64,000 nucleotides of DNA from Spizellomyces punctatus DAOM BR117 (Eukaryota): NCBI GenBank assembly GCA_000182565.2, contig KQ257467.1. The stretch is one strand, 5' to 3'. The notes under the pieces were generated by a model. That model saw only the letters and a program-made list of their open reading frames with translations. It did no database searches and was not told where the DNA came from. The position numbers were made by a program, and so were the translations under genes. Position 1 is the stretch's first letter. Each line of letters opens with the position of its first letter. Shown here piece by piece: positions 1,317 to 61,650 of the stretch.

Positions 1317-1831
1317 GCGGGTACACTTTTAGACGTTTTTTTTTGTGTAGATAGAGTTTTTGTTTACATTTGTCGTCGTCGTCTTTAGATCAGTATGTAG
1401 ATCGTCCATAGTCTTTAGAAATTTGAGAGAAAGAGCTGTAGGGCAGCCTTTCTTTTTTGCCTTGTATCTGTGTATCAATATATTTGAATGCAAACTTCAA
1501 AGATAAAAAGGTCAACCAGCCCATAACACACACAGAAAGGCCCAAAAGGCGGAACACTTCACACTCTTTTAGTCACCGTGCCGCTCTTGTTGCTATGGCA
1601 ATTGTGCACGAGTCGACTTCCATCCGGCGCGGGGGGGCGAAGGATAACGAAGGGTCGGGGGTACTTTGCTATTGTTTTTTGCCTAGCGGGTGATTTTTGG
1701 GAGATTTTATTCCTCGACTTTTTGTGGGGATACCATCTTGGTTTGGGCAACTTTTAACATTTCTATATTATCCCCTTTTTGTTTGCTTTTTTTTGGTTTC
1801 TGCATACACAATCATCACCGTATCGAAACTG

Positions 1832-4800
1832 ATGACCGAACCCACGCTGGGTATTGCTCCCCAAGCACACCATCCACCACAGCAAACCCAGGCACAACAG
1901 CATCAATCCCAACAGCAGCAGAGCTCCTCTTCTTCTCCCTTTCCTGTCACGCCGGCAGCTGCTCCGGCAGCCGGACCGGTCCCTTCCCGCGCGTCTAGCG
2001 CTAGCACGTCGCCTACGTCGGGGTCACACTCGAACGGTATGATGAATATTGGACTTGCGAACGGTGGAGACTCTGCGAGTCAGAGCTCGGATAGTTTGGC
2101 CAATTCTCGTGAAATGTATGTATGACTTGGTTTTATACAGTTTTTGGGAGGGGAGTTTGGAGGAATGGAATCTCGGCATGATTGCCCTTTTTTTTTGACA
2201 CACTGGCTGCTTTGAGTCTGGCAATGACGGGTCCCAATCAAGTGGATTTGGATCTCGATGGGGATTGGGAATGCTACGCATGGATATATCACACGAGATG
2301 TCTAAAGACTTCTTTTATTGCCCCTTATCACACTAGGTTGCACGTATACATACAGGATTATCTAGTAAAGAATGGATATAAGGACACTGCCCAACGATTT
2401 GCCATGGAAGCGCAAAACGACTTTCCATCAAATCGGTCTGTTCCAATTGACACCCCTCAAGGATTCTTGGTAGAATGGTGGACTGTTTTCTGGGATATTT
2501 TTGCGGCCCAGCATCCATCTTCGCGAGATGGAGATAAGCTAAAGACAGTTCCTTCGGACGAGGCTAGAATTTTTGCGCAGGTTCGTAGGGATTCGTTCGA
2601 GTTTTGGTGCTCCTGACGGTGGATCCAGTATTCCAACATTTGGCTGTATCGTTCCAGGCACAGAGAGAAAGAAGTGATCCACAGTATGCTCAGCGCATGG
2701 CTATCATGCGACAAGAGCTTGCACGCCAGCAACAAGCTGCTACTGCTCATCAAGAAAGTCAACAAGGAGCACCACTGAACGGCATCAATACCAGTTTAGA
2801 TACTGCCCGATCTCAAGCGGCCAATGCAGTTTCACCTCCCTCGGTTAATCCACTCAACCCTCATAGTAGTCCTGGTATGGTCATTTTGTCCCTCAAGGGC
2901 CCTCCAACAGGTCATTAACTTGATACATGGTTCTCAGCGCCACCTGCCTCGGATGTATCCCAACAATCACAAATCCCCGGACCATCTCCTCGGATGCCTC
3001 CTCATCCGTCCCCGTCCATTACAATACCACCAGGTTCTGGACGAATTCCTCCAACCCAAGCCTTTGCAGCACCGCAAACGTCACCACAGCAGGCCTTCAT
3101 TCACATTGCGAAACAAGTATTCCCAGGCCGCGACTTGAACACCTTGACAAAGCCTGAGCAAGAACAGGTTCACAGCATCATCCGGCAACGGTGCGTGAAT
3201 AATCTTTTTTATGAGATGATAGTGTTACAGTTGAATAACATTCGTGTCTCTTGTAGGTTTCACCGTCAACAGCAGGCGGTCCAACAACAACAGCAACAAC
3301 AGCAGCATGCATTGATGATGCAGCAGCATCAACAGCAGCAGCAGCAGCAGCAACAACAACAGCACCACCAACAACAATTGCTCCGGCAGCAACAACTCCA
3401 ACAGCAGCGGGCTGCTAACGGTATGAATCCGGTATTACCCGTAAGTGTTCCGACGGTTTGCAGTCAAACCCCCCGGTACAATTCTCATTTGCGCTCTACT
3501 TGCAAGGATGGCGATGTATCTCAACAAGCGCCACATCAAGGTGTCACAGATCTTAGTGGCATCACACCTATGGCAAAGCGTGCTCGTCATAATAGCTACA
3601 GTCCTGTCGTAGGTCCAGGACAGATTCCCCAGCAGGGCCTTCCGGCTCAAAGCCCCAATATCCCCCCTTCGCAGACGCAAGCAGGGATGCAGCAAAGTCC
3701 TGTCGTTCAGAACGGTGAGTCAACATAATATTGCGATCATTGGAAACCGCGGTATTCGATATCCGAGAGTCTGATGGTCGATATGTAGGTATGATGAATC
3801 CGCAGATTCAACAAGCCGCGTATGCGCAAATGTTGGCAGCGCGAGGCGATGTTCCATTAACGCCTCAGGTAAGCCCTCCGTCCCTCTGTTGGGAGATATA
3901 GGGCGGACGTTAACTCACGCTTCGTGAATGTAGCAGCAGCAGCAGTTGCATATGCAACGTCGCATGAGTGCGATGCAAGGAATGGCGCAGCCTGGAATGG
4001 GAGCTCAACTTTCACAATTGAGTCCACATGGCATGGGGATGAATCCTGCGGCCATGAGACATCCAGAAGGATTACAGAATGGGCAATCTGCTGAGGCCAT
4101 TATGCAGCAGAATCAAGCCAAGCAGGTAGACAATTGTGGAGAACGTTCGGAAATGAAACCTTTTGACTCATTCTCAATTTTGGTCATTTAGCAACAACAG
4201 CTTATGCTCCAGCAACAGCAACGGATCAACCAGTATCATCAGGCGGCTGCTCAATCCATTGTACAACGAAGTCCCCAAGTCGCCCAAGGACAAATACCTC
4301 CGACTACTGCGGGTTTGAAGCGGAAAGCCAGTGATATGGCACAGGAAAGCCCGATGCCGCATGGACAAGGCATGGTCACACCCACGTCCGCGCAGCAAGC
4401 GCAACTACAGGAGCGAATGATGCAACTTCAGCATGCACAAGCCGCGGCTGCCAGTATGGGAATGAACGTACCGCAAATGGGCGTCCACCCAAATGGTATG
4501 ATTCCGGGCCAGATGCCACAAGACCCGCGAACGGCGCAGGCGTTGCGACAACAGCAAGCGCAAATGATGCAAATGCAGCGATTGCGCATGGCACAGGAGC
4601 AACAGCAGCAGCAAGCTCAAGCACGAGCGGCGCAAGCTCATCAAGTGCAAGCACACGCTCTTGCTCAACAAGCACAAATGCAGCAAGCTCTTGCTCAAGC
4701 TCAACAAGCTCAACAGGCCCAACAAGCACAGCAGCAGGCGCTAGTGCAGCAAGCACAGCAGGCTCAAGCTCAGGCACAAGCTCAGGCACAGGCCCAAGCG

Positions 4801-6973
4801 CAGGCACAAGCTCAATCCCAGCAACAAGGTCAAGGTCAACCTGCTCCTCAAGGACAGGTTCAAGGAGCTGCCAATGCTGGCTACCGGACTCCAACTTCGC
4901 GTCCTGGACCTGGTATGGTTCAACAGCATGCAAAGGTATGTATCGGCTACTTTCAAGGTTGGCAAAAGAGTGCTTACATTGAGTATTGCAATCCCATAGA
5001 TGGCAACACCAGGCGTTCCCACATCAGTTACAGATGGCGCAATGTCTGGTCCCCCTGCAAAGCCGCCGACTCCGGCCCCAGTACCAGGATCAGCTGCACC
5101 GACGGCCCAAAAGTTTGCAGTCCCACAAAGCATGATGCCCTCAGCTTCGTCGGTAACGGCAATGGACGCGCAATCTGTCTTGGCCGGCTCGTCCCAGCCG
5201 CCCAGCACTGATTTGGCACTACCGACGACTGAAACGGACGATTTTGATTTAGAAAAGATGCTTGGAGAAGACTCTTTGCAGGATTGGATAAATAACTCTA
5301 GCGTCATGCCCGGCGGCGATACAGGTGATCCTTTCGATAGCCTGCAGGATTTTTTCATGGGCTCAGCCCCTGAAGGGCTGAGCCATCCTGACAGCAACAC
5401 CAACCAGTCGGGAAACGGGGTGGGGACTAGCGGCCAAGCAGAATCTTCCAGCGCCGAAGGTTCCGATGGCGCCGTCGATCGTGACGGTGCCCCGGCTAGT
5501 CTCCAAACGTCCGTAAAGGCGCAAAGTTCAGTAAGCGGGAGTAACTCGACAAGTGTCACCCGCCTGAACCAGAATATACCATTGCACGAGGGATATTTAA
5601 AGCCGCTCGCCAATCTGAGCGGGCACAACGACAAGGTGATGACATGCGCGTTTCAACCGTCTGGAACGATGATGGCATCTGCTGGGCGTGATCTAAAAGT
5701 TCTTGTCTGGCATGTGGCACCCACTGAGAATGGTGTGACCGATGGGAATAGCCTTGGCGAGCCAATGAAAATTGCGCAATTGGATGGGCACACTGCTCAG
5801 GTTACCAATGCCAGGTTTATGAGTTTGGCAAAGATTTGTGGACCAGAGGCCAAATCGATTGTCCCGGATGATATCCCAGTGTTACTGGCGACGAGCAGCG
5901 CAGACAGTACTGTTCGAGTATGGGATCTGACTCAAATCAAGGATAAAAAGAGCGAGGATGGGACTGGGGTTGCGGAATTGGTGATGACGTTTACCGGCCA
6001 CCAGCGACAATTGACGAGTGTGGATTTTTGTCCGGTGGCGGCTGCCCCTGTAGGTGGAGTGGCGGGGAATAAAAAGCTCATGATGTGGGCTGCTAGCTTG
6101 GATGCGGAAGGTAATATTTGTGTTTGGGAGGTTTGGACGGGCAAGGTTGTCAAAACTTTTGAGTTGGTATGTTGCTGTGGTCTTTTTGATGAAATTGGAA
6201 TGAATAATGCTCATTGAAAATTTTTTATCATTCAGCCAACGGCGGGGAAAGCATCAAAATATTCCGCCTACAATCCGCTGCGGTTCCGGCATAACCCAGG
6301 TCAGAACTCAAATCCCATCTTGGCAGCCGCATTCGGGACGTCCATCTACTGCGTGGAACTTCCCATGTCAGATACCGCAGGGATGGCTGGCCAACACAAA
6401 CTACATACACTCGAGACACCCCATCAAAAGAACATTATTAGCCTCGACTGGAGCGTCGATGGCAATTGGCTGGTAACAGCCTCAGAGGACAAGATTGTTC
6501 TCTGGGACGCACGAAGTAGCGGGGCCATCAATATGGGCATGGTTGTTGGGGCCGTGAAAGTCGAACCCTTCCGCCTCTTTTCGCAGATTCCGACTCAAAG
6601 CGGCAAAATCTCCAGCTGCGGCTTCATCCAAACCCCCTTATCAACTCCCACTGCCGCTTCACCTACTAGTACCAACCATACCCACCATTTATCCGACATG
6701 CCACCGTCAACACCCCGAACAAACCCTCTCACCCTGCCACCACGCGTGGTGTTTGGAGAGTACGAAACAATCTACGTATGGGACGCCCCTGGCGATGTCT
6801 CTACCGGCGGTGGTCGGGCGTGGCATGGAGGTGGTCTCAAGGTCGTTGCCCTAAAGAGCTGTCAAGCGGGTGTGGTCAGCTGCGTTGCTAGTGGACGGTG
6901 GGGAGACTTTTGTGTGCTTGCTAGCGGAAGTCAGAGCAAGGAAGCCAATTTGAAGGTTTGGAGAGTTGGATAG
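1832..6973 (+). CDS. LEUNIG-like transcriptional corepressor: LisH/LUFS domain, Q-rich middle, C-terminal WD40 repeats (multi-exon)
   Basis: ATG 1832; intron 2116-2336 creates [28 protein letters not shown]...[19 protein letters not shown] (LUFS); polyQ and QA tracts; WD40 repeats such as [55 protein letters not shown] and [28 protein letters not shown] 6971-6973. Confidence 0.88.
3266..3410 (+). repeat. CAG/CAA polyglutamine tract (coding)
   Basis: Imperfect (CAR)n run encoding QQQ..HQQQQ within the LEUNIG-like gene. Confidence 0.9.
4600..4830 (+). repeat. Gln-Ala repeat (coding)
   Basis: CAGGCACAAGCT-type units encoding [15 protein letters not shown]. Confidence 0.85.
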
Positions 6974-6999
6974 AAAACAAGTGTGGTGCGCGGCTTTTG

Positions 7000-7780
7000 T
7001 TACCCATTTTTTTTTTTGCTCTACGGACTTTAGTCTGGTTGTACAAGGAGCATGGACGGAGCGAGTTATTTAGCACAATTGATGATGTGGGGGGGAACTC
7101 TGTTACCGACCTTGCCCTCTCCGAACCCTTTTATTTTCATTGATTCTTTTTTTTTTTGTCATGGACATTTTCCAAAGAAGTTGTGGTTTTTTTTCAATTA
7201 TTTTTTCAAATGTATCGGTTTATTGTTTTTGTTTTTTGTTATTGCTGGGGGTTTTGGAGTAGTAGTATTTTTTCTTTTTTTTTTGGTTTATTAAAATATC
7301 AAAAAGTTTTATTTTCTTTTTTTAAAATGTGGGTGTTTTGTGTGTTGCATCCTTTTTTTCTTTTTTTCTATTCTGTATATATTTTCTGTTTGTGGATCGT
7401 ATCTTGCATTTTTTTGTTGGTTTTCGTGATATTTCTATCTACGGGCTTCACAGAATAGGGTTTTAGATGGCGCCAGTTCAGATTATTGCAGCAGTAGGAG
7501 TGTTGAGGGGTACATTTAACAATGATACGTAAGCTTGTTTTGTTTCTGAAGGGGCGGTATGAGCAAGTGCCTTTTGTTAAAAAAGGAGTTGTGAATCAAG
7601 ATAAGGTCAAACTTTCCTTTTTTTTTGGATGAAAGTCGGTTGTCATAAAACATTGGAAGATACGGGACAAAAGCGATGGGCACTCACAAAAACAAGAAGC
7701 AAAGAAGAAAAACAGATATAATCATAAACAAATCAAAAAAAAACTGCTATGGTACAAAAAAGAAAAAGAACATTGCTTTG
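7000..7780. repeat. Low-complexity T-rich then A-rich intergenic region between convergent genes (overlapping 3' UTR/terminator zone)
   Basis: Dense poly-T runs 7130-7430 and poly-A runs 7680-7770 between stop codons at 6973 (+) and 7789 (-). Confidence 0.6.
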
Positions 7781-7788
7781 CCCCCATT

Positions 7789-10700
7789 CTACCCGACTGC
7801 ACCCAACTTGTGTGCCCCACCCGCACCCCCCAACTTGATCAAAGCACTCTCATACTCTTTTTTAAAAGGTCCAAAGCGTGCAACCAAACAATGATAATTA
7901 TGTCTCAAATGGGGTGGGATCATGGTTAATGTCAAGCAATCGGGGGACGGAAGGCGAGGTGGTGGTGGAAGAGAAGAATCAGTTGGATCAAATTGCATAG
8001 AATGACGAACCAGTTCTCCTTGAAGGACTTGAAGGTACTCTTCGGCTTTCATGACACCGAATCGTTTTTCTAGTGCTTCGCGGCCACCGGGTCCTCGGGT
8101 ATCATTTGAACCTTCTTCTTCGACGTGGGTGGTGGTGTTGGTATAGGGGTGGGTATCTTTTAGGCGTTCACGGCCTTTACGTTGTCCCATGATGATGTGT
8201 TCGAGGTGGGTGGGGTGGGAGGTACGTACTTCTTGGAGGTGTTCGCGTTCAACGCGGTCCATGATGAGAGCAAATGTTCGCATGGTGATACCGGTGGGGT
8301 TAAGGTCGTTTGAGCTGGCGTAGGACCATAAGAGTGTGCCGTGGTGGGTGTTCCATTCTCCGAGAATAAATGCGACCATGGTTCGGTCGTTTTCGAGTGG
8401 TGGTGTTGTAGAAGGGTTTTCGTGAGGGGAGGAGCCTTCGGTGCTTCCGTCGGCGCTGTTGGCTCGAGATGGACGTTTGGTTTTATGTCGACGGGGTTTG
8501 GATGCTGCAATGTATGCGCAAGCTAGGTATCGTCTCACGTGTCCTTGCTCGGTCTCGGCGGCGGGTGGGGTCGCAGAGGGTGTACTGGATGGCCATTCGG
8601 TGCGTCCGACAATGCGTTCGCAAACTTCTTCCCAGAGTTGACTTCTTTTCATTAGTTTCTCCCAACTCCCAATGTCCTCTACTTGCTCCATGTATCGAGG
8701 GGTGGCTAGTACAACCAGCTTTCCTTCGACATAAAGTCCTTTGACATTTTTGAGAATGCTGTCGACCGTTGATTTGGGATGCTGGTCAAGCAGCTCATCA
8801 GGGACGCGCCAAATGTCGAATTCAAATGGTCCATTGCCGAGACGAATGTGGGGGAGGAGGCAGGTTTTGCGGCTGGATGCAAACAGTTGTATCGGGCGCC
8901 ACTTGCCAGTTCGATGTTTATTTCCTCCTCCGCATTCGGTGCAAAAGGCGTACTTTGCCGTGCATGCTATAGAAAATATTAAAACATGATTTTAACCTCA
9001 ACGGAATGCTAGCAGGAAAAGTTCTTTTGTTTGTGGTGTGGATAAACAGAAATAAAACATACCTGGACAAATGTACTCTGTGCCAAAAGCAGGTTCAATC
9101 CACTGTCCACGGACAGACACTGTATGTTCAGAGCCATTGACTGTCGTCTTTGTCACCGGCACACCAATCTCATCACCCACTAATCGCATTCCCCCGACTC
9201 CAATATCATTTTTACAAACTTCGCAGTGGATAACGCGTTCCCTAGGATTTCGCCAGACCCTTTTACGCCTATTTTTAAGAGCAGGCTCGTCGGGCGCGGC
9301 ACCCCTTTTGGCCGCACATGGTAAACAGACGACATCAGATGCGTATGTAGCTGCTAGTTGATGTTCGCGCCCAAATATATGGGCACGGGCAATGTTCACG
9401 GAGCATTGAGTGCACAGCACTTCTTCCTCTAGGAACATACGCCTTTTGCATTGGGATGATTTCAACAATGTAGCTTTACGTGGGTATATGTGAACTGTAC
9501 GAGAGCCGGACGATGCAGACGGCGACGTCTCCGTAATGTCCTTGCTTGCAATATTGCTTGTTGGGACAGTCTCCCGCGGAGAGTGTGACTTCCCGAGGGA
9601 TGGTGTGACATGCGAATGTTTACGCACGTGAGGCGGTGACTCATCGGACCTTACCCTCCGAACGTTAATTTCTTGTGGTTCCGACTCAGCCAGGAACTCA
9701 ACAACATCCTTTCCAACAGCTGAGCCAGGACTATCGTCCATGCGAAGGGATTTCAATGTGCATTCACTCTGCTGAGAGGTTGGTGAGTGTACCAGCGGAT
9801 CATCTACATCGATCTCCGAGTTCGCGCGACTAGAGCGGTCTCCGCCTTTTGGGGAATAGTTGACATCCAACCACGACATGGCTCGTTCAATTTCGTGCAG
9901 GGGCTTTGGCGCATTACTAGCATCCCATCGACTTGTCGCTGACTGCTTCAACAAATGAAATTTTGAGTTGGAATTGGGCATCAGTCCAGGTTATATATAT
10001 GATGTTGTACAAAGCGTATTTCTTTGCAGCAGCGAGCATGTACATGTAGACACATTCGGCAAGATTGGTTACATACCTGGCCAGTGGTCCGAGGTACATC
10101 AAAGTCCATGATACACGGCGCGGATGCCACAGCTTGTGACTCCGTCGCAGCTGTTGTCACAGTGTCGTTGATGAAAGCAAGGTACTCTCCCACTTCATCC
10201 ATCACCTGCCGACAGGATGATTCAAGACCCAGTCTTTGAGGCCCGTGAAGCGTTGGATCCACAAGATTGTCCAGAACAGCTGTATCCTCTTGATCAGCAG
10301 CGTATTGAGATCCCATTGTGTCCAATACGGCGCCATTGGATGGTCGAGGTGACGAGAAGGCGGCAGGTCTATTGTAGGTGGTTTGCGGCCAATATGGTAC
10401 GGACGATGGAGTCCAGGTGCCCAAAGATTGCCATGGCGCATGATAAGGTTTGTCGAATTGAAAGTGCGGGAAGGTACTGGTGACCGTGTTACTGACAGGT
10501 GTATATGATGGTTGATGCGTTTGTTGCGATGGGTTAAATTCGGATGAATGATGCGAGTGGAGATGTGGTGGATGGCTGGACAGCGGTCGTATGGACGGAG
10601 CGTATGGCGGTGCAGTGTCCGTATCTTCAGGAAAGTAAAAACGCATAGCATGGGCAAGAAACAGAGAGAAACCAAAGAATCAGTTAGCCTTTTAACCATC

Positions 10701-23015: not shown

Positions 23016-26000
23016 CTATCCACCGCCAGCTTCGCCCATCTCCACTTTATCCACTCCATGATCCGCATTCCGGTTCCCTCTCCACCGATGAAACCATGAC
23101 AAAGTCCCACCCTTTTTGGTTTCTTCCAACAGGATGTCGGTATCGGATGGGAAAAAGTGATGGAAGAAGCTGATTTAGAAAGGAAACAGTTAGAGTTAGT
23201 CACCAGTCAGTTAAAGAAAAAGAGATTCAAAAATACTCACTACTTGAACACCCAATCACCCAACATACACCCTCCGACAATCAGCAGCCCGACTAACCAG
23301 AACCCAGGTAGGACATGCACCCACTCGATCGTCCCCCGTTCAATAAACTTGGCCCACTCCACCACAAACATGACACAAACGTTGAGTGCAAAACTCAACA
23401 CCAGCACTCCACCTGTGATCCACCCGAATCGCCCTACCCAGACATTGGCGTTCATGGCCGCCTTTGTCAGCACAACGGCGAGCATAGGCGCCGAAAAGAG
23501 GTAGCATTGAACGTAATATCCAGCGCTGTATCCAGAGGGATCCAGAACGTTATCCCAAAACGCTAGCCAAACGGCACCAAAGATAAATAGACTATGGATC
23601 AACGAGGAAACTAGGGTGGTGATCATGTGGCGGGGTGACCAGTAAAGTCCGGATTTGACTTGCTTGTAAAGGGGAGGAGTCGCGAGGAGGAGTTTATCGG
23701 GTGCGTCGTAGTCAAAGATGGCAAAGAAAAGCGGTGGCAGGGATGTGAAGAAGACGTTGAAAGCCGTGAAGAAGATTTCCTCATAGACCAGCTGCGAAAC
23801 GAGGACAATGAGTACAACCAAGATAACGAAAACAAAGCAAAGTAGAAAGAGAGAGCGGTAACATACCTGTCCACTCCACATACACAAGAACCCAAACCAC
23901 CATTGCACCGTAATAAACACGAAATTCTTGTAAAAACTATAAAACACCAATCCACTCAACCGATTGCGACTCCACCGACCATGTACCCCACAAAGCCTCG
24001 CCAAGAACCGAAATTCTCCAATCGCATAATCGGAAGCCCGGACAGCCTGCGTCCCCTCTCGTCCGACGACGCCCACACCTACTGTGGCAGCCTGGATCAT
24101 GGACACGTCGTTGGCACCGTCTCCGATCGCCAGTGTGACGCATTTGAGGTTTTTTTGAACGAGTTGGACGACAAGAGCTTTCTGGAGGGGTGTAACGCGG
24201 CAACAGATGACTGTTGCGCAGTGGGAGGTGAGGGCAAGTAGATGAGGTGGGTGTGGTGAGTTGGGGAGGAAGATGTGGTGAAGGGTTGCGCCTGGGATGA
24301 CGAGGGCATAGCGCCGGGGTGTGGTACGGGTTGTGATGTTTCGAACCGCTTGGTCAATTTGTGAGGAAATCTCCTTGTCCGTTACACCATCCAATATGAT
24401 GGTGTCCATGTTGGGTGAAATGAGTCGAGAGGATGCACCAATGTTGATCGCGGTTTCCATTTTATCCCCTGTCAAAAGCCATACTTTCATTCCAGCTTCG
24501 AGAAGGTACTCGATGGTCTCTGGGACTTCGGGCTGCAGACGGTCTTCGATCGCAGTACATCCCAGAAATCGCAAATCCCTTTCAACAGTCTCGCACGCAG
24601 CAGCAATCATTTGCTCCCGATCTTCGAGACTCGTTTCAGCCTCGTCATATAAGACGCGGAAGGTCTCATATTCTTCTTCAGTCAAGGGTTTGTATGCAAC
24701 CACAAGGGTACGCAATCCCTCCTCTGAGAAATGCTTGAGCGCCCCCTCGGCAGCGTCGATTGCCCCCCTTGGGTTCCATTCGCTGTTCTTATCTAGCCGG
24801 TCGATAACAATGTTATCGGCACCTTTGCAGAACAGCATAATACCATCCGCTGTCCGCACAATGACACTCATCCGTTTTCTATCTGATGTAAAGTCTAGTA
24901 GACCCAGTTGCTCCACAGACATGTCTTCTCCTAAGCACTGGATGTTGACTCGATCCTTTGTTCGTGAGAGAAGAGTAAATCCAGATGCTTTGACACCATA
25001 TAGAAGAGCGGACTCATCCGGACTTTGCGACTCGTAAATTAGGTTATTTGTCTTGGGATCCACGGACGGTATAACGCTATGACAAAGTGCCAAAGCCAGG
25101 CCAAACTTGATCATCACATCGCGGACTGCTGGGTCCAGCCCCGGCTCCTCCAGAGCCTTTCCTATAACTCCAGGCTCCTTCATCTCATCCAAAACTTTCC
25201 CTCCGACATACCAAGAACTGGGCCGCATATCATTCATCGTCAACGTCCCAGTCTTGTCCGAAAATATGTACTCGACAACACCGAGATCTTCGTTTAGGTT
25301 ACTGTTGTTGGCCTTCATTTTGACTTTTGTTATGGATCCATCAGGGTTGACTCGGTTGACACGCATCTCCGCGTCCCACATCATGTACTTTGCTTGGATT
25401 ACTCGGACGATTTCAATGGTGACAAACAGGGATATCGGAATAACATAGGTGTACATGCCAAAGAATGAGATGATAGTAAATAGGACGTGCTAGAAATGTG
25501 TTGATAAGTGAAAAGTTATGAATATGTCGCACTGGACGATCAAGACTTACTCGCGAAGGGTTATCATCAACCGGTCCCAGATACCAATTCACTGGATAAT
25601 TTACCGGATCAGTCGCCTTGCTCGCCATTTCCCGATCATATGCTCGTTTGTATAACCTCCACTCTAGCCAGACGCTACTAATCAACAAAGCCGCGTTATA
25701 CACAAAAGCGCCCATAACAAGCCAATTGAGCTGTCGTTCGAGAGTAGAGCTTTTTGGCTTGGGCTTTTTGAGATTTTTAATGATTTTGGTATTGGAGCCG
25801 GTGTAAATGACGATTGCGTAGGCAAAGTCCGTGTTGCGGAGGACTGCGCCGCGGAGCATGAGGTTGGTGAGAGAGAGGGAAAGGGTGATGTCTTCGCCGG
25901 TAGCTTGGCGGATGTGGACTCGACCTTCAAAGGCAGTGAGTCTGTCGTTGGGTTGCTCGCATTGTATTTGGCCGCGGAGTCTCGATACGACCTAAAATAA

Positions 26001-34117: not shown

Positions 34118-36751
<2,634 letters not shown>

Positions 36752-45900: not shown

Positions 45901-47495
45901 TGTCTATCCATCCCCTTACGTCCATGTAAGTCTCCATGATGTTTGCATCTATTCCTCAAGTAGATTCAACTCACAGTCAAATTCAGGCCTACGTGAACGA
46001 CCAACGCGCGTTTTCGACTCGAATCAAGTTCCACAACCCGTCTCCAGTTTGGGCAGGCAGCAATGAATTCTTTATCCGAGACTGGAAAAGCGCCGTCTTC
46101 CGCCTTGTCGTGAAAGACGCCCGTCAACACGAACATGATCCTGTCATTGGCGTTGTTGTGCTTCGTTTGGCGGACGTGTTTAAGAACACGGATGATATGG
46201 TTGCGTCTTCTTGGTATGAGTTGAAAGGCGGTATTGGATTCGGGAAGGTTAGGATGAGTATGGCGTTCAGGAGCGTGAAACTGCAAGAAGAGAGGAATAT
46301 GAAGGGATTCGGCGTTGGAGAGCTGGAGATTAAGCAGCTGGGCATTCGTGGATTGGATGCTGTGACAAAGTGTACGTCAACTGCCTACAGTCTTGCATGC
46401 AGGGACTTGCGAGCTTATAATGTTTGCTTTTTTGCTACAGCGGACACACCTCCACCCCATATTTGCATCAAAGTCCGTTCTCCGCTCACCACACCCAGCA
46501 AGGTTACCACGCACATCAGCAAGGAAGCAACTTTTGCACCAACATACGATGAAACCTTCAACATCAAAGTAAAATCTCGATACCAATCATCTCTCCGCTT
46601 TGAAGTACACCAAAAAGGCATGTTTGGATTCCGTGATAAGGTTCTCGCCATTGGAAAAATGTATCTGCAAGACCTTGTAGACAATGAGGAACGTCAAGTT
46701 GTTCTTGCATTGAAAAAATGGCGAAGGAATAAAGGAAAGACGGATTTGGATCTTGAAGATCATATGGGAACGACCGACAAGACAGTACTGGCACAGGAAA
46801 GCGAGAAAGAGACCAAATACGTTCCACAGGGAGAGGAAGCTGTTAAACACGGGCTTGCAACCGACATTAGTGGAAACAAGGAAGAGGGCACCGGCATTGC
46901 TTCACCGAATCCTCATCAAGGTCTCGATGAGAACGATCTTGCCCCAGCAGCAGATGGTAAAATGTCTCCACCTAAATCTCCGGACACAGACAGCGAAAGC
47001 GACCCCAATGAAGTCATGATTGACGACGATTCAGATGCATCCTCCACCGCTTCCTTTTCTATGGACGAGACCGACTCTTCCTCCATCCACACTGCCGACT
47101 TTGAATCGGTTACTTCAGTCACATCGCCGGAACTTTACTTTACCGCAGTCTTCCGTCCTGGACGGCGATGGATTGATAACCCCCGGGAAGGCGAAGACCT
47201 TGAAATTGATCTCTTGCAGCCAAGCTCTCCAAGCGAAACTGAGGAAACCACAGGAGAAAAAGACCAAACGTCCAAAAAGCTTTTTACGCTTGGCGCTGCG
47301 ACCACTTCCAATGTGAGCAACGAAAAAGGTGGCAAAAAGTCGGAATCCACCCGAGAGGATTCAAGGCTGCCGGGGAACAAACTGACGAGGACGTTGGAGT
47401 GGAGCAAAGATACAGTTATTGAAGGAGTCAAGAGTACACGGTTGTGGAAGAGGAGTTCAAAAAAGAGTTTGGTGAACGAAGGCACCGAATTTTAA
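42998..47495 (+). CDS. SMP plus multiple C2-domain membrane-contact protein (tricalbin/Mug190-like)
   Basis: TM hairpin, SMP start ETAEWVNFFLAQLWPIIDP, C2 motifs AADWTGTSDPYATL, VWDFDAMSRNDVLG, SGILAVQVHQA and HEHDPVIGVV...GGIGFGKVRMS; many GT-AG introns. Confidence 0.88.
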
Positions 47496-58717: not shown

Positions 58718-61650
58718 TCAGCGGATGGTTTGTGTAGGAGGCAGCTCTAGGTTATCATCTAGTTCATCAATTCGTAGGCTCAAGGGTCGCTTTGGCGCGT
58801 TGTGTAGGGTTGTAGCGTTCTTCTTCTCATTTGCCAAGAGCCGTTTCGCGACAGTCACCCAATGTTCACAGTGGGTTCTATATGAGCATTGTCAACCAAA
58901 GGGGCGCCAAGAGGAACTCACGACGAGGCTCGACTTACTGAACAATCTCTCGCAAATCGCGTCCATCTTCTGACAGAGTTTGAATCTCTGCAGCATCTCG
59001 CATAAGGTTAGCGTTGAAGGACGCCAGCTACAAGAGGGAAAAGTCGACCTTAGCCGTCACTGGTACATGTATTGCGATCGCCAGTGAGAGGTGTTTTTGT
59101 ACCTCTTGAGTCAATTGAGCGAATTCATGGTCCCAGGCATCTGTTGGTTTCTCCCGGCCTGCTCTTACCAGCAGGTGAACCATCCAACTAATCATGGTCG
59201 TATGTAACTTTATATTCTCTGTTGTGGCAAGGAGAAGTGAGGACACTGCCCAACTGAATGACGGTACTATACTACCCACCTTCGTTTCTTATATCGGTGT
59301 CGGTATTCAATTGATCGAGTAAGCGAGAGAGCCAATTCTCTACATGTAGAGGAATCTTATGTTGTTCCTTTTCCGTAGTGTTGGACAATGTATCTAGCGA
59401 GAGGAAGTACATTCGTTTAGAATTGAGGACATAACCAGTTTGAATCAATTGAGGAATCTACACTCCGGAGGAAGAATCTCTGCGCGGGATCACAGGTAGT
59501 ATAATCTGGGAGTCTCACCGTTTGATCCTCCGAGATATGTGATCAAAGGGTGGTGGTTCACACATTATACTACCCTTTGCCCGTACGGATTGCATCTTCT
59601 CCGGTGCATCTTCTGAGAGGAACGTACCAATGAGATTCTTGCCAATTTGGGCGCTCCAGTTGGTAAGTGAGTCCCGAAGCGACTGTCGCTCGGAAAATGG
59701 TAATGGCTTGTCAAGGTCCCGCGCACTGTAGGTCGTGTATCTACAAGAAAGAACTAGTCAGGTTATCCACTTGACAGCGAACCTTGAAAATCAAAAAAAA
59801 AAACTACCTATCCTCCAATTGATTTTGCAAGTTAATGACATTACTGGCAATTCCATCCTCTCCTGACACACGCATTTCCAGTTTGGTTAGCCATTCTTGG
59901 ACTTCCAACCCGACTCTGCTCAGTATTTCTGTCAGAGGAAGATAGTCCTTCCCATTCGTATTCTTCTCATTTCGTCTCAGCAACTTGTATCCTCCTTCTA
60001 TCCAGACCTCCGTTTCTTTCCGGATTTGCGATATGTCCTCTTGAAATGCCAAGTCTCTATCGCTCGTGAACCTAATGGCTACTGATGTGATCTGTTCCAC
60101 CCATTTCATCAAGTGTTCGGACAAACTCTTGACATCGTGTATTTGGAAAGCTTTGAGCAAAGGGTGCTCTACTTCAAGGGTATCAACTTGATCTCCAGTG
60201 TCGAGATTGCGGAGAACCATATCCATATCTCGTTGCATTTTAGCCAAAGTCTCAATATTATGCTGATCTTCTTCGACAACAGACTGGGACAATCGGATAA
60301 GTTTTGACCTCCATTCCTCAATCTTTCGTTCGATGTTGTGGAGTTGCGAATCGTTAGTGTTACTGATGATGACTGTCATGTGGTTTGTAGCTCGAAGTCG
60401 GGCATGTTCGTACTTCTGAAGAAGAACTATATCGGCAATGCCGTGCTCTTGACCGATTCGGAGAGCCAAGGCCGTCGCTGCGTCAACCCAGATGCGTTTC
60501 TCTTGCTCTGCCAACCGAACGGCGTCCTCCAACCGATCACGTTGCATTCTGTAAAGCTTGTGATACTCTTCCAATATCTCTCCCGTATTGTCCGACTGTG
60601 TCAATACAGATACTAGCTTTTCCTGCGCATCTTGGGCTTGTTTCGTAACATCCAAATCATGCTTTCGGATGATCTCAAGTTCCCTTACCAAATCCGCCAC
60701 GGTTTCCTTGGACCGTAATAACTCGTGTGATAGTCGTCTATTCAATTTCCTCTGAGCCAGCAATTCCGTATGTAAGTGCTTGACGTGTTTTGGGATCTTG
60801 GTGAACATGTTGGCGTATCTGTTTCGAATTTCGGCTAAAACTTCCCCGCGCTCGATCATGTTGACCGTCACCTGTCGTATCAGCTCTTGGAATACCGCAT
60901 CATAAATCTTTTGCTCTTCTTGAATGATGGCTAAAAATGCATGCATTTCTGTTGGGTATTCCTGATCCATTTCTGCACCAATTTCTTTTATTAGTGCTTC
61001 CATTGTATGCTTGAGGAGAGCAACTTCTTTGCGAGTGGTGGGTCGCATCGCAGCCAGGTTGAGTTGGTGCTCGGAAGAAGCGGGTACGTTGGAAGACTGC
61101 TTGCAGACAAAACCCAGTAAATCAAGATGTTGTCCAGATGATTAACTCTTATTTGCTGCTCACCCACCCCATTGGCGCCAACGCCAGGCGCAACTATATT
61201 CATACTGTCGGCAGTCACCGATCCAGCTCTGTCGCCTGGAAAACTTTGAGTGCGCCCTCTTTGTCCACCTGTGTCTCGACTGACATCCTCTGATTGCTCC
61301 GCGTGAAAGTTACGCTCGTGTCCAGCATCATATATGAACGACAAATCGTCGTTAATTCCAGGCGCCTGTCGAGAGATTTGTGCCACTCGCGAAGCTGGTG
61401 TTCGTTGTATTGTGCTACGGGATGCTGGACTAGCTGTGTATGCGCCTTTTTGTACATGTGCTGTCGGAGTCGATTGGGTTGAAGGAGCATCGAGACCAGT
61501 ATTGGAAGCGATGGCCTCGGGCAGAGGGTCGGCTTTCGAAGACGTGAAGGCCTTGGCCCTAGTTGAGGTTTTTCTAGCAGGAGTTGGCTTAGGACCCTGT
61601 GTGGAGAGTCTTGAAAGGTCGGAAAGAAGAGCAGTTGGAAGGTACGACAT
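58718..61650 (-). CDS. Axonemal dynein light chain domain-containing protein (AXDND1-like), coiled-coil
   Basis: RPTTRKEVALLK...EEQKIYDAVFQELIRQVTVNMIERGEVLAEIRNRY (axonemal dynein light chain motif); 414-codon core exon; last exon IVQ-THCEHWVTVAKRLL...TIR* at 58718; internal 3' exons approximate. Confidence 0.78.

Follow-up and report, generated by a model that had tools for sequence, protein, structure and literature searches.

Gene structure

One spliced reading frame occupies positions 1832–6973 on the plus strand of the window, the whole 64,000-nt stretch of DNA that was analysed. It starts with an ATG at 1832 and closes with a stop codon at 6971–6973, which are exactly the ends given by the initial annotation. 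As computed from splice sites and open frame, the coding region is made of 11 exons separated by 10 introns and amounts to 4311 nt (1436 codons plus stop) for a product of 1436 residues. All ten introns run GT..AG; intron 1 measures 221 nt, and the others 63–77 nt. As the 11 consecutive frames are open only if they are spliced at canonical sites, the gene model does not stem from chance.

Exon 1 (1832–2115) encodes residues 1–94, a low-complexity N-terminal extension rich in Ser, Ala, Gln and Pro, and ends in the first two bases of codon 95, which intron 1 splits. The LUFS domain (residues 95–176) is encoded by exon 2 (2337–2580). Exons 3 to 9 follow on the same strand at 2658–2874, 2938–3190, 3257–3440, 3507–3714, 3789–3868, 3934–4125 and 4192–4935. 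Exon 10 (5000–6166) and exon 11 (6236–6973) are separated by intron 10 (6167–6235), which interrupts the N-terminal half of the WD40 propeller.

Domain organization

The initial annotation had described a protein with a LUFS domain, a Q-rich stretch and WD40 repeats in a fungal genome, and the spliced frame and its domain matches bear this out. Exon 2 is matched by the Pfam LisH family (E 1.5e-7, at about 2347–2412), and its only PDB matches at E ≤ 1 are four distinct SSBP2/SSDP LUFS-domain chains (E about 1e-7, ~60 residues aligned), without TBL1. The LUFS string first quoted for this locus corresponds to the exon 1/2 junction, its first Met being created by the split codon. In chytrid orthologues, the LUFS domain likewise begins near residues 86–98.

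The middle region (2658–5548, plus strand; residues 177–985) spans exons 3–9, extends 183 codons into exon 10, and is presumably disordered. Its 809 residues comprise 22% Gln, 14% Ala and 10% Pro, with Gln runs of 11 and 8. No Pfam family scores above the cut-off in this region and, once low-complexity stretches are masked, BLAST detects nothing shared with relatives past the LUFS domain.

The Pfam WD40 family matches exon 10 (E 1.3e-16) and exon 11 (E 1.5e-7). The N-terminal half of the propeller, with blades 1–3 and a linker (5594–6259, plus strand; residues 1001–1199), is delimited by the match of the F_N profile, and the best Pfam WD40 stretch lies there at about 5600–5710. The C-terminal half with blades 4–7 (6260–6970, plus strand; residues 1200–1436) is delimited by the F_C and A3 alignments and contains a Pfam WD40 stretch at about 6401–6508. 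The alignment with plant LUG, from which the count of seven blades is taken, is collinear across all of them to the C-terminus and gap-free over the exon 10/11 junction; the protein stops directly after blade 7. Five blade motifs that the initial annotation had listed for LEUNIG occur in the same order in the plant LUG/LUH sequences fetched for this alignment.

Occurrence of the architecture

A search with the LUFS domain retrieved 482 relatives at E ≤ 1e-3. Among the 150 best matches, 16 combine LUFS with a WD40 propeller, and 15 of these bear names: ten are from plants (LUG/LUH or otherwise unlabelled), three from chytrids, one from a mucoromycete and one from a breviate. The non-plant carriers are Synchytrium, Irineochytrium, Quaeritorhiza, Bifiguratus (Mucoromycota) and the breviate Pygsuia. 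Two further fungal-type members were found beyond those 16. In BLASTP, the propeller is 37.6% identical to that of Synchytrium over 399 residues (E 4e-72) and 34.8% identical to that of Irineochytrium over 485 residues.

Word-indexed searches were less productive. With the LUFS exon, 14 candidates were returned, none of them significant, a result that is uninformative given the 482 LUFS relatives found otherwise. With blades 1–3, bacterial multi-WD40 proteins swamped the list and no orthologue was returned; 120 multi-WD40 matches of this second search served as controls for the profile tests described below.

Descent of the propeller and of the LUFS domain

The likeness to LEUNIG could reside in architecture and not in descent, if a fungal Flo8-like LUFS/Q-rich protein had gained an unrelated WD40 propeller, for example from TBL1/Sif2. 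The propeller is indeed very divergent from that of plant LUG. With the P_N profile of the N-terminal half it ranks below 96 of the 120 controls, and with both C-terminal-half profiles, built from plants or from plants plus Pygsuia, below all 120, so that, searched from the plant side, no likeness to plant LUG can be detected. A phmmer search of the PDB with exon 11 gave 36.7 bits for TBL1XR1, 35.9 for Rsa4 and 26.6 for Tup1 (1erj), compared with 29.7 for Pygsuia in a local search, where no plant LUG appeared among the 40 best matches (lowest 20.8 bits). Under the fungal full-length profile, TBL1XR1 reaches 84 bits over two blades and plant LUG 61.8–82.0 bits over the whole propeller, scores that do not discriminate. 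Two look-ups in the ESM Atlas returned generic WD40 clusters only (WSB1, a TBL1XR1 fragment, RACK1 and STRAP), and LEUNIG was not among them.

Canonical multi-repeat proteins dominate whole-protein bit scores, which do not measure kinship; for this reason best single-domain scores and trees were used. The similarity to TBL1XR1 is local (36.7–84 bits), covering one to two blades that do not correspond. In the reverse direction, with fungal profiles of blades 1–3, plant LUG proteins (63.8, 50.4 and 50.2 bits) score above all 120 controls (best 43.9); Arcella Tup1 obtains 22 and 17.8 bits on fungal profiles. The protein P0296 is clearly plant-LUG-like in blades 1–3, with 123.4 bits under the plant plus Pygsuia N-terminal-half profile, where the best of 235 controls reaches 99.4, and clearly of the fungal type in blades 4–7, with 153.6 bits under the fungal C-terminal-half profile against 24.1 for controls. 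P0296 is an intermediate that joins N-terminal blades of the plant type to C-terminal blades of the fungal type. In phmmer searches, it matches liverwort LUG with 119 bits in one collinear stretch, and WDR5 with about 100 and Apaf-1 with 105 bits, each a sum over three stretches; Tup1, TLE and TBL1XR1 are absent among its 60 best PDB matches (lowest 85 bits).

A first propeller tree gave a 100/99 split that tests little, because it included only one kind of outgroup. It was superseded by a more careful maximum-likelihood tree (IQ-TREE; 32 rows, 301 columns), in which a 100/100 branch separates all 16 LUFS-WD40 propellers, from fungi, plants and the breviate, from the outgroups, these being 15 generic multi-repeat WD40 propellers and one Tup1 only, with TBL1, HOS15, Groucho/TLE, TOPLESS and LIS1 left out. 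Arcella Tup1 falls among the generic controls. A phylogenetic check had been called for at the outset, and this tree places the propeller with LUG/LUH and away from Tup1 and generic WD40 proteins. On the LUFS-WD40 side, propellers of the fungal type are united in a clade of their own (100/99), separate from that of plants (99/93).

A quick tree of LUFS domains puts four fungal LUFS-WD40 proteins not beside plants but as the sister group of a 32-member clade without WD40 (SH-aLRT 85). It is built on 89 columns, leaves 30 of 64 forks open and places the LUFS domain of the window on a long branch without resolved position. Nine members of that clade are named; all nine come from basidiomycetes, one under the label 'Transcriptional activator flo8'. 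This adjacency to WD40-less basidiomycete proteins would also fit a convergent fusion, and the single weak node behind it is the one indication for the derivation of Flo8 by loss of WD40 that the initial annotation had envisaged. The resemblance to Flo8/Som1/SomA of Dikarya is apparent in the LUFS domain itself, which is 40–55% identical to proteins of Mixia, Testicularia and Rhodotorula. In contrast to the full propeller of the window protein, none is found in the dikaryan LUFS proteins that were checked (0 among the 16 WD40 carriers of the 150 best matches), as had been expected of them. Dikaryan LUFS proteins are described as activators that act with Mss11/Mfg1/PtaB, and the LUFS protein SomA of A. 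fumigatus as binding physically to PtaB (PMC4631450).

Nevertheless, the acquisition of an unrelated propeller is unlikely. Against it stand the common branch of the propellers, as opposed to Tup1 and generic WD40 proteins, the dual character of P0296, the non-corresponding blades matched by TBL1XR1, and the domain order shared by plants, the breviate and fungi, including the end of the protein right after blade 7.

Integrity and origin of the gene

A reading as two adjacent genes is formally possible at intron 9 alone (4936–4999, plus strand; 64 nt, GTATGT..TAG), because exon 10 opens with an ATG at 5000. The frame that enters this intron meets no stop within it, so that a LUFS/Q-rich gene would read on as far as the stop at 5211, and a separate WD40 gene would start at 5000. 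In an RNA run of the same species, 57 of ~26.4 million reads match, mostly at 6768–7100 and none across a splice junction, a coverage too sparse to test for a single transcript; three further runs consist of genomic contigs that are not spliced. The two genes would, however, have to overlap; intron 9 is like its neighbours in canonical ends and length; and the GC content remains at 0.45–0.57 throughout 1501–7000 and falls to 0.33 only past the stop codon. Single proteins running from an N-terminal LUFS domain to a C-terminal WD40 propeller are annotated independently in four other fungal genomes (1418–2331 residues), and the Logan protein P0298 likewise unites both parts. The label of the Pygsuia homologue GCRY01006103.1.p1 describes a complete ORF (len 756). 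The style of its accession, together with the ORF tags, suggests a transcript, in which case LUFS and WD40 would be carried by one mRNA. A split into two genes is thus very improbable.

That a fungal ancestor acquired a LUG/LUH gene by transfer from some plant or alga, one of two origins envisaged in the initial annotation, is scarcely credible, for although some plants match or beat chytrid orthologues in the LUFS search (Ilex 104 and Cochlearia 69 versus Irineochytrium 60 bits), the Ilex score is that of two LUFS copies (two stretches), the fungal-type propeller clade is highly divergent and lies outside that of plants, the family covers chytrids and a mucoromycete, the breviate too has the LUFS-WD40 architecture, the LUFS domains of the fungi fall with LUFS proteins of basidiomycetes, and the gene contains 10 host-type introns.

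At this locus, a chytrid-like fungus probably carries one nuclear gene for a LEUNIG-type co-regulator. Its product belongs to a fungal-type clade comprising chytrids, a mucoromycete and two further assemblies. This clade probably descends from a common ancestor with plant LUG/LUH and the breviate homologue, so the architecture would have been inherited vertically from an early eukaryote. The presence of the same architecture in Bifiguratus and Pygsuia favours ancient retention, that is, the other envisaged origin, an ancestral LUG-like corepressor kept in early-diverging fungi. The evidence is best read as vertical descent from a LUFS-WD40 co-regulator of ancient origin.

A wider scenario is put forward tentatively. 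The LUFS-polyQ-WD40 co-regulator may predate the split between plants and fungi, animals and breviates, and would therefore be close in age to eukaryotes themselves. Flo8/Som1 and SSDP, devoid of WD40, might then be truncated descendants, the LUFS-LDB/SEUSS pairing might originally have delivered a WD40 corepressor, and zoosporic fungi might still run a 'plant-like' LUG-SEUSS repression alongside Tup1.

Comparison with known co-regulators and possible mode of action

Plant LUG/LUH, which are co-regulators of the Gro/Tup1 type, have their domains in the same order as the window protein: a LUFS domain comes first, a Q-rich region follows, and seven WD40 blades form the C-terminal end. The LUFS domains are 47–49% identical, and the propellers stand on the common branch (100/100) of the maximum-likelihood tree that compares them with generic WD40 proteins and one Tup1. 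Differences are nevertheless marked. With 1436 residues, the window protein is nearly double the size of its plant counterparts (about 680–830), because of a Q-rich linker of ~800 residues and the 94-residue extension that precedes the LUFS domain. Propeller identity is only 22–26%, blades 2, 3 and 6 carry long inserts, and plant-derived profiles do not separate this propeller from generic WD40 proteins.

Animal SSDP/SSBP, the LUFS partner of Chip/LDB1, provides the sole solved structures that match exon 2; unlike the window protein, the matched PDB chains are short LUFS constructs of 68–95 residues. Full-length SSDP is not known to carry a WD40 domain, and its tail is Pro/Gly-rich, not Q-rich. 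Tup1/Groucho and TBL1/Sif2/HOS15 follow the same general plan as the window protein: a disordered linker connects an oligomerisation domain at the N-terminus to a seven-blade propeller at the C-terminus. A LisH motif likewise stands at the start of TBL1. However, no Tup_N or TLE_N Pfam match is present in the window protein and the Tup1 propeller sits among the controls, whereas with respect to TBL1/Sif2/HOS15, marked by a LisH plus F-box-like N-terminus, the N-terminus here is of the LUFS type, exon 2 matching SSBP only in the PDB.

By analogy with plant LUG/SEUSS, fungal SomA/PtaB and animal SSDP/LDB, the LUFS domain would self-associate and bind an adaptor of the LDB/SEUSS/PtaB type, and this adaptor may tether the complex to DNA-bound transcription factors. 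The Q-rich linker could provide multivalent contacts. The propeller would dock chromatin modifiers or Mediator, and target genes would thereby be silenced or, in certain contexts, activated. For plants, the interaction with SEUSS is reported to be mediated by the LUFS domain (PMC13395540).

Implications

LUG/LUH are treated in the literature cited here as plant co-regulators, and a 2026 study gives LUG/SEU an age of at least 800 million years. A literature search found no paper on fungal LUG-type proteins, although supplementary trees, for example those of PMC13395540, could hold non-plant sequences. With full-length homologues present in chytrids, a mucoromycete and a breviate, the origin of LUG would shift much deeper, the protein design appearing far older than plants. 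A link would also arise between three LUFS systems investigated independently of one another, namely plant LUG-SEUSS, fungal Flo8/SomA-PtaB and animal SSDP-LDB. In kind, the finding concerns evolution and annotation; the proteins are already public under the labels 'hypothetical' or 'LisH domain-containing'. Tractable zoosporic fungi would serve as a test bed for the role of the ancestral complex. The host of the present gene looks zoosporic itself: chytrids harbour the nearest relatives of the protein, and an axonemal dynein light-chain ORF also lies within the 64,000-nt window.

Gene model and domain organization

On the plus strand, stop-to-stop reading frames between positions 1694 and 6973 make up a chain of open frames, which canonical GT..AG joining converts into a single frame of 4311 nt encoding 1436 residues. 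Ten introns separate the 11 exons; intron 1 measures 221 nt and the other nine 63–77 nt. In this spliced model the ATG lies at 1832 and the stop codon at 6971–6973, exactly the ends given in the initial annotation. Exon 2 contains a LisH match (Pfam, E = 1.5e-7), and its only matches in the PDB are the LUFS domains of SSBP2/SSDP (four distinct chains, E of about 1e-7), which are thus its solved relatives. SSBP2/SSDP proteins are partners of LDB. Residues 177–985 consist of 22% glutamine, with runs of 11 and 8, and WD40 repeats (Pfam) are matched in exons 10 and 11. None of the family-specific Pfam propeller models scored above its own cut-off on the encoded protein. As the LisH/LUFS match, the Q-rich middle and the WD40 repeats were all found in one spliced frame, the LUFS, Q-rich and WD40 build first described from the sequence is confirmed.

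A pair of adjacent genes would require the upstream frame to end at a stop at 5211 and a second gene to start at the ATG of exon 10. The first codon of exon 10 is indeed ATG, and the upstream frame stays open through intron 9 as far as that stop, but intron 9 resembles its neighbours, the alignment of orthologues is gap-free where exon 1 meets exon 2 and where exon 10 meets exon 11, and a single protein runs from LUFS to WD40 in the independent models of Synchytrium (1418 residues), Irineochytrium (1453 residues), Quaeritorhiza (2331 residues) and Bifiguratus (1632 residues, apparently merged with an alpha-galactosidase). P0298, a protein from a Logan assembly, shares this organization, and so does a Pygsuia record that bears the name of a complete ORF of a transcript-style entry. 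Two genes are therefore considered highly improbable. A same-species RNA run gave 57 reads on the gene, mostly in the last 300 nt and with 0 junction reads, too thin a coverage to bear on transcript structure; the other sequencing runs compared with the gene are unspliced genomic contigs.

LUFS relatives and occurrence of the propeller

An exhaustive phmmer search of 1.84 billion representatives with the LUFS exon returned 482 matches at E ≤ 1e-3, the best 150 of which were retrieved. A propeller profile detected WD40 repeats in 16 of these 150. Fifteen of the 16 were identified: ten from plants (LEUNIG, LEUNIG_HOMOLOG or entries without a protein name), three from chytrids, one from the mucoromycete Bifiguratus and one from the breviate Pygsuia biforma. 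Among the same 150, LUFS proteins without WD40 occur in basidiomycetes, including Mixia, Testicularia, Rhodotorula, Abortiporus, Marasmius, Exidia, Kalmanozyma, Naganishia and Tulasnella, the last with a protein labelled "Transcriptional activator flo8", and also in Eremothecium, Coemansia, a green alga and the holozoan Pigoraptor. The propeller encoded in the window is 35–38% identical to those of chytrids (E from 4e-72 to 2e-56) and 22–26% identical to those of plants (E from 3e-16 to 7e-8).

A search with a profile of the C-terminal blades added two fungal-type members, the N-terminally truncated P0296 and P0298, together with a Tup1-family protein of Arcella. Within the fungal-type clade P0298 is compact (645 residues), with LUFS, a linker of about 230 residues that is not Q-rich, and a propeller; the large Q-rich middle is therefore not constant in the fungal-type family.

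Several models deserve comment. LUFS was found and a propeller was not detected in P0231 from the chlorophyte [Myrmecia] bisecta (642 residues) and P0186 from Pigoraptor, a unicellular relative of animals (506 residues); outside land plants, loss of the propeller may be common, or gene models may often be incomplete. The plant proteins P0121 from Ilex (320 residues) and P0123 from Cochlearia (831 residues) each carry two tandem LUFS copies and for this reason score too high in the LUFS search. The Bifiguratus adelaidae protein P0134 is named "Alpha-galactosidase" in UniRef and was aligned without most of blade 2. Its precomputed Pfam list holds PF16499, PF17801 and PF00652, all absent from the other LUFS-WD40 relatives, and its propeller ends near residue 1143, so that this model is probably two merged genes.

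Kinship of the propeller

A propeller tree was computed with IQ-TREE (LG+C20+F+G4 PMSF, careful settings) from 32 rows and 301 columns: 16 LUFS-WD40 proteins (eight plant, seven fungal-type including that of the window, and Pygsuia), 15 generic WD40 controls and Tup1. The aberrant or truncated plant models P0160, P0170 and P0220 were excluded, as was one control with a window of only 104 residues. A 100/100 branch placed all 16 LUFS-WD40 propellers on one side, and Tup1 fell among the generic controls, in agreement with the proposed grouping of the WD40 region with LEUNIG/LEUNIG_HOMOLOG (LUG/LUH). Support was 100/99 for the fungal-type clade and 99/93 for the plant clade, the bootstrap being not fully settled (correlation 0.986). 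The row nearest to the window propeller is Quaeritorhiza (51% identity over 202 columns). With an outgroup made up of generic WD40 proteins and one Tup1, the tree rejects these rather than every family, such as TBL1/HOS15, Groucho/TLE, TOPLESS or LIS1. With these caveats, the sequence comparison identifies the propeller as LUG-type.

Raw scores are no help in deciding this kinship. The window propeller scored below 96 of 120 controls with the plant profile of blades 1–3, and below all 120 with both plant-side profiles of blades 4–7. Plant LUG repeats are very canonical, so the plant profiles strongly favour generic multi-repeat proteins, along with WDR5 and its like, over the divergent propeller of the chytrid type. 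Exon 11 alone matched TBL1XR1 (36.7 bits), Rsa4 (35.9) and Tup1 (26.6) at scores comparable to that of Pygsuia (29.7), and plant LUG was not among its 40 best local matches (lowest 20.8 bits). LUG does stand out in the reverse comparison. With the fungal profile of blades 1–3, three plant LUGs (63.8, 50.4 and 50.2 bits) exceeded all 120 controls (best 43.9); with that of blades 4–7, Pygsuia (25.7 bits) exceeded all controls by a narrow margin (best 19.1). The Pygsuia propeller reached 120 bits on the plant-only profile versus at most 75 for the controls, and is clearly of the LUG type.

The decisive link between plant-type and fungal-type propellers is P0296, which combines plant-type N-terminal with fungal-type C-terminal blades. 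It scored 123.4 bits with the plant and Pygsuia profile of blades 1–3 (best of 235 controls, 99.4), and 122.2 and 153.6 bits with the fungal profiles of blades 1–3 and 4–7, respectively (best of 235 controls, 48.4 and 24.1). As a single query it matched a liverwort LUG in one collinear stretch (119 bits), and WDR5 (about 100 bits) and Apaf-1 (105 bits) each as a sum of three stretches. Its 60 best matches in the PDB (lowest 85 bits) included no Tup1, TLE or TBL1XR1.

Descent

The fungal-type propeller clade, comprising the mucoromycete, four chytrid-type sequences and two further lineages, lies outside the plant clade. In a quick, poorly resolved LUFS tree (67 rows, 89 columns), four fungal LUFS-WD40 proteins (SH-aLRT 89) adjoin a 32-row clade without WD40 (SH-aLRT 85), all nine identified members of which are basidiomycete Flo8-like proteins; the LUFS of the window sits on a long branch without resolved position. 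Taken together with the breviate homologue and its LUG-type propeller, these results favour vertical inheritance of an ancient LUFS-WD40 gene, that is, the ancestral LUG-like corepressor retained in early-diverging fungi that the initial annotation had proposed. They argue against its other suggestion, transfer from plants, as far as a recent event is concerned. A derivation of Flo8 through loss of WD40 would fit these results by way of one weak node of the LUFS tree, and ancient paralogy would fit them equally well.

Proposed mode of action and novelty

In plants, the LUFS domain mediates SEUSS binding and LUG connects transcription factors with histone deacetylases and Mediator (PMC13395540); the Aspergillus fumigatus LUFS protein SomA binds PtaB (PMC4631450). 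By analogy, the LUFS of the fungal protein would oligomerise and bind an LDB-type adaptor, the long Q-rich linker would provide multivalent contacts, and the propeller would face chromatin or Mediator factors.

No description of a fungal LUG-type protein was found among the papers retrieved on LEUNIG/LUFS and fungi, judged partly by titles and abstract openings of the best-ranked ones. A 2026 MBE study sampled streptophyte algae and land plants, and a PNAS 2022 LisH survey entered LUG among plant corepressors. The LUFS-WD40 proteins themselves are already in public databases, annotated as hypothetical or by their LisH domain. The locus is unremarkable as a gene, yet informative on the age of the corepressor design.

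Genomic neighbourhood

The GC content is 0.45–0.57 over 1501–7000 and 0.33 directly downstream. This segment right after the stop codon (7001–7500) also has a strong T excess on the plus strand (AT skew −0.44), and is probably 3′ UTR and intergenic region common to the gene and the minus-strand ORF 7789–8991. Just upstream, the plus-strand ORF 246–1316 has a sub-threshold GATA-type zinc-finger match (24.0 bits against a Pfam cut-off of 26.8, E = 2.9e-5) and is probably part of an intron-containing gene for a transcription factor. Large exons elsewhere belong to ordinary eukaryotic housekeeping neighbours, namely a P4-type phospholipid-flippase ATPase (23240–25489, minus strand), a Cef1/CDC5-type splicing factor (Myb_Cef; 34653–36494, plus strand) and a C2-domain protein (45930–47495, plus strand). 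An axonemal dynein light-chain match (PF10211, E = 2.9e-7) in the ORF at 59804–61141 on the minus strand fits a flagellated, zoosporic organism.
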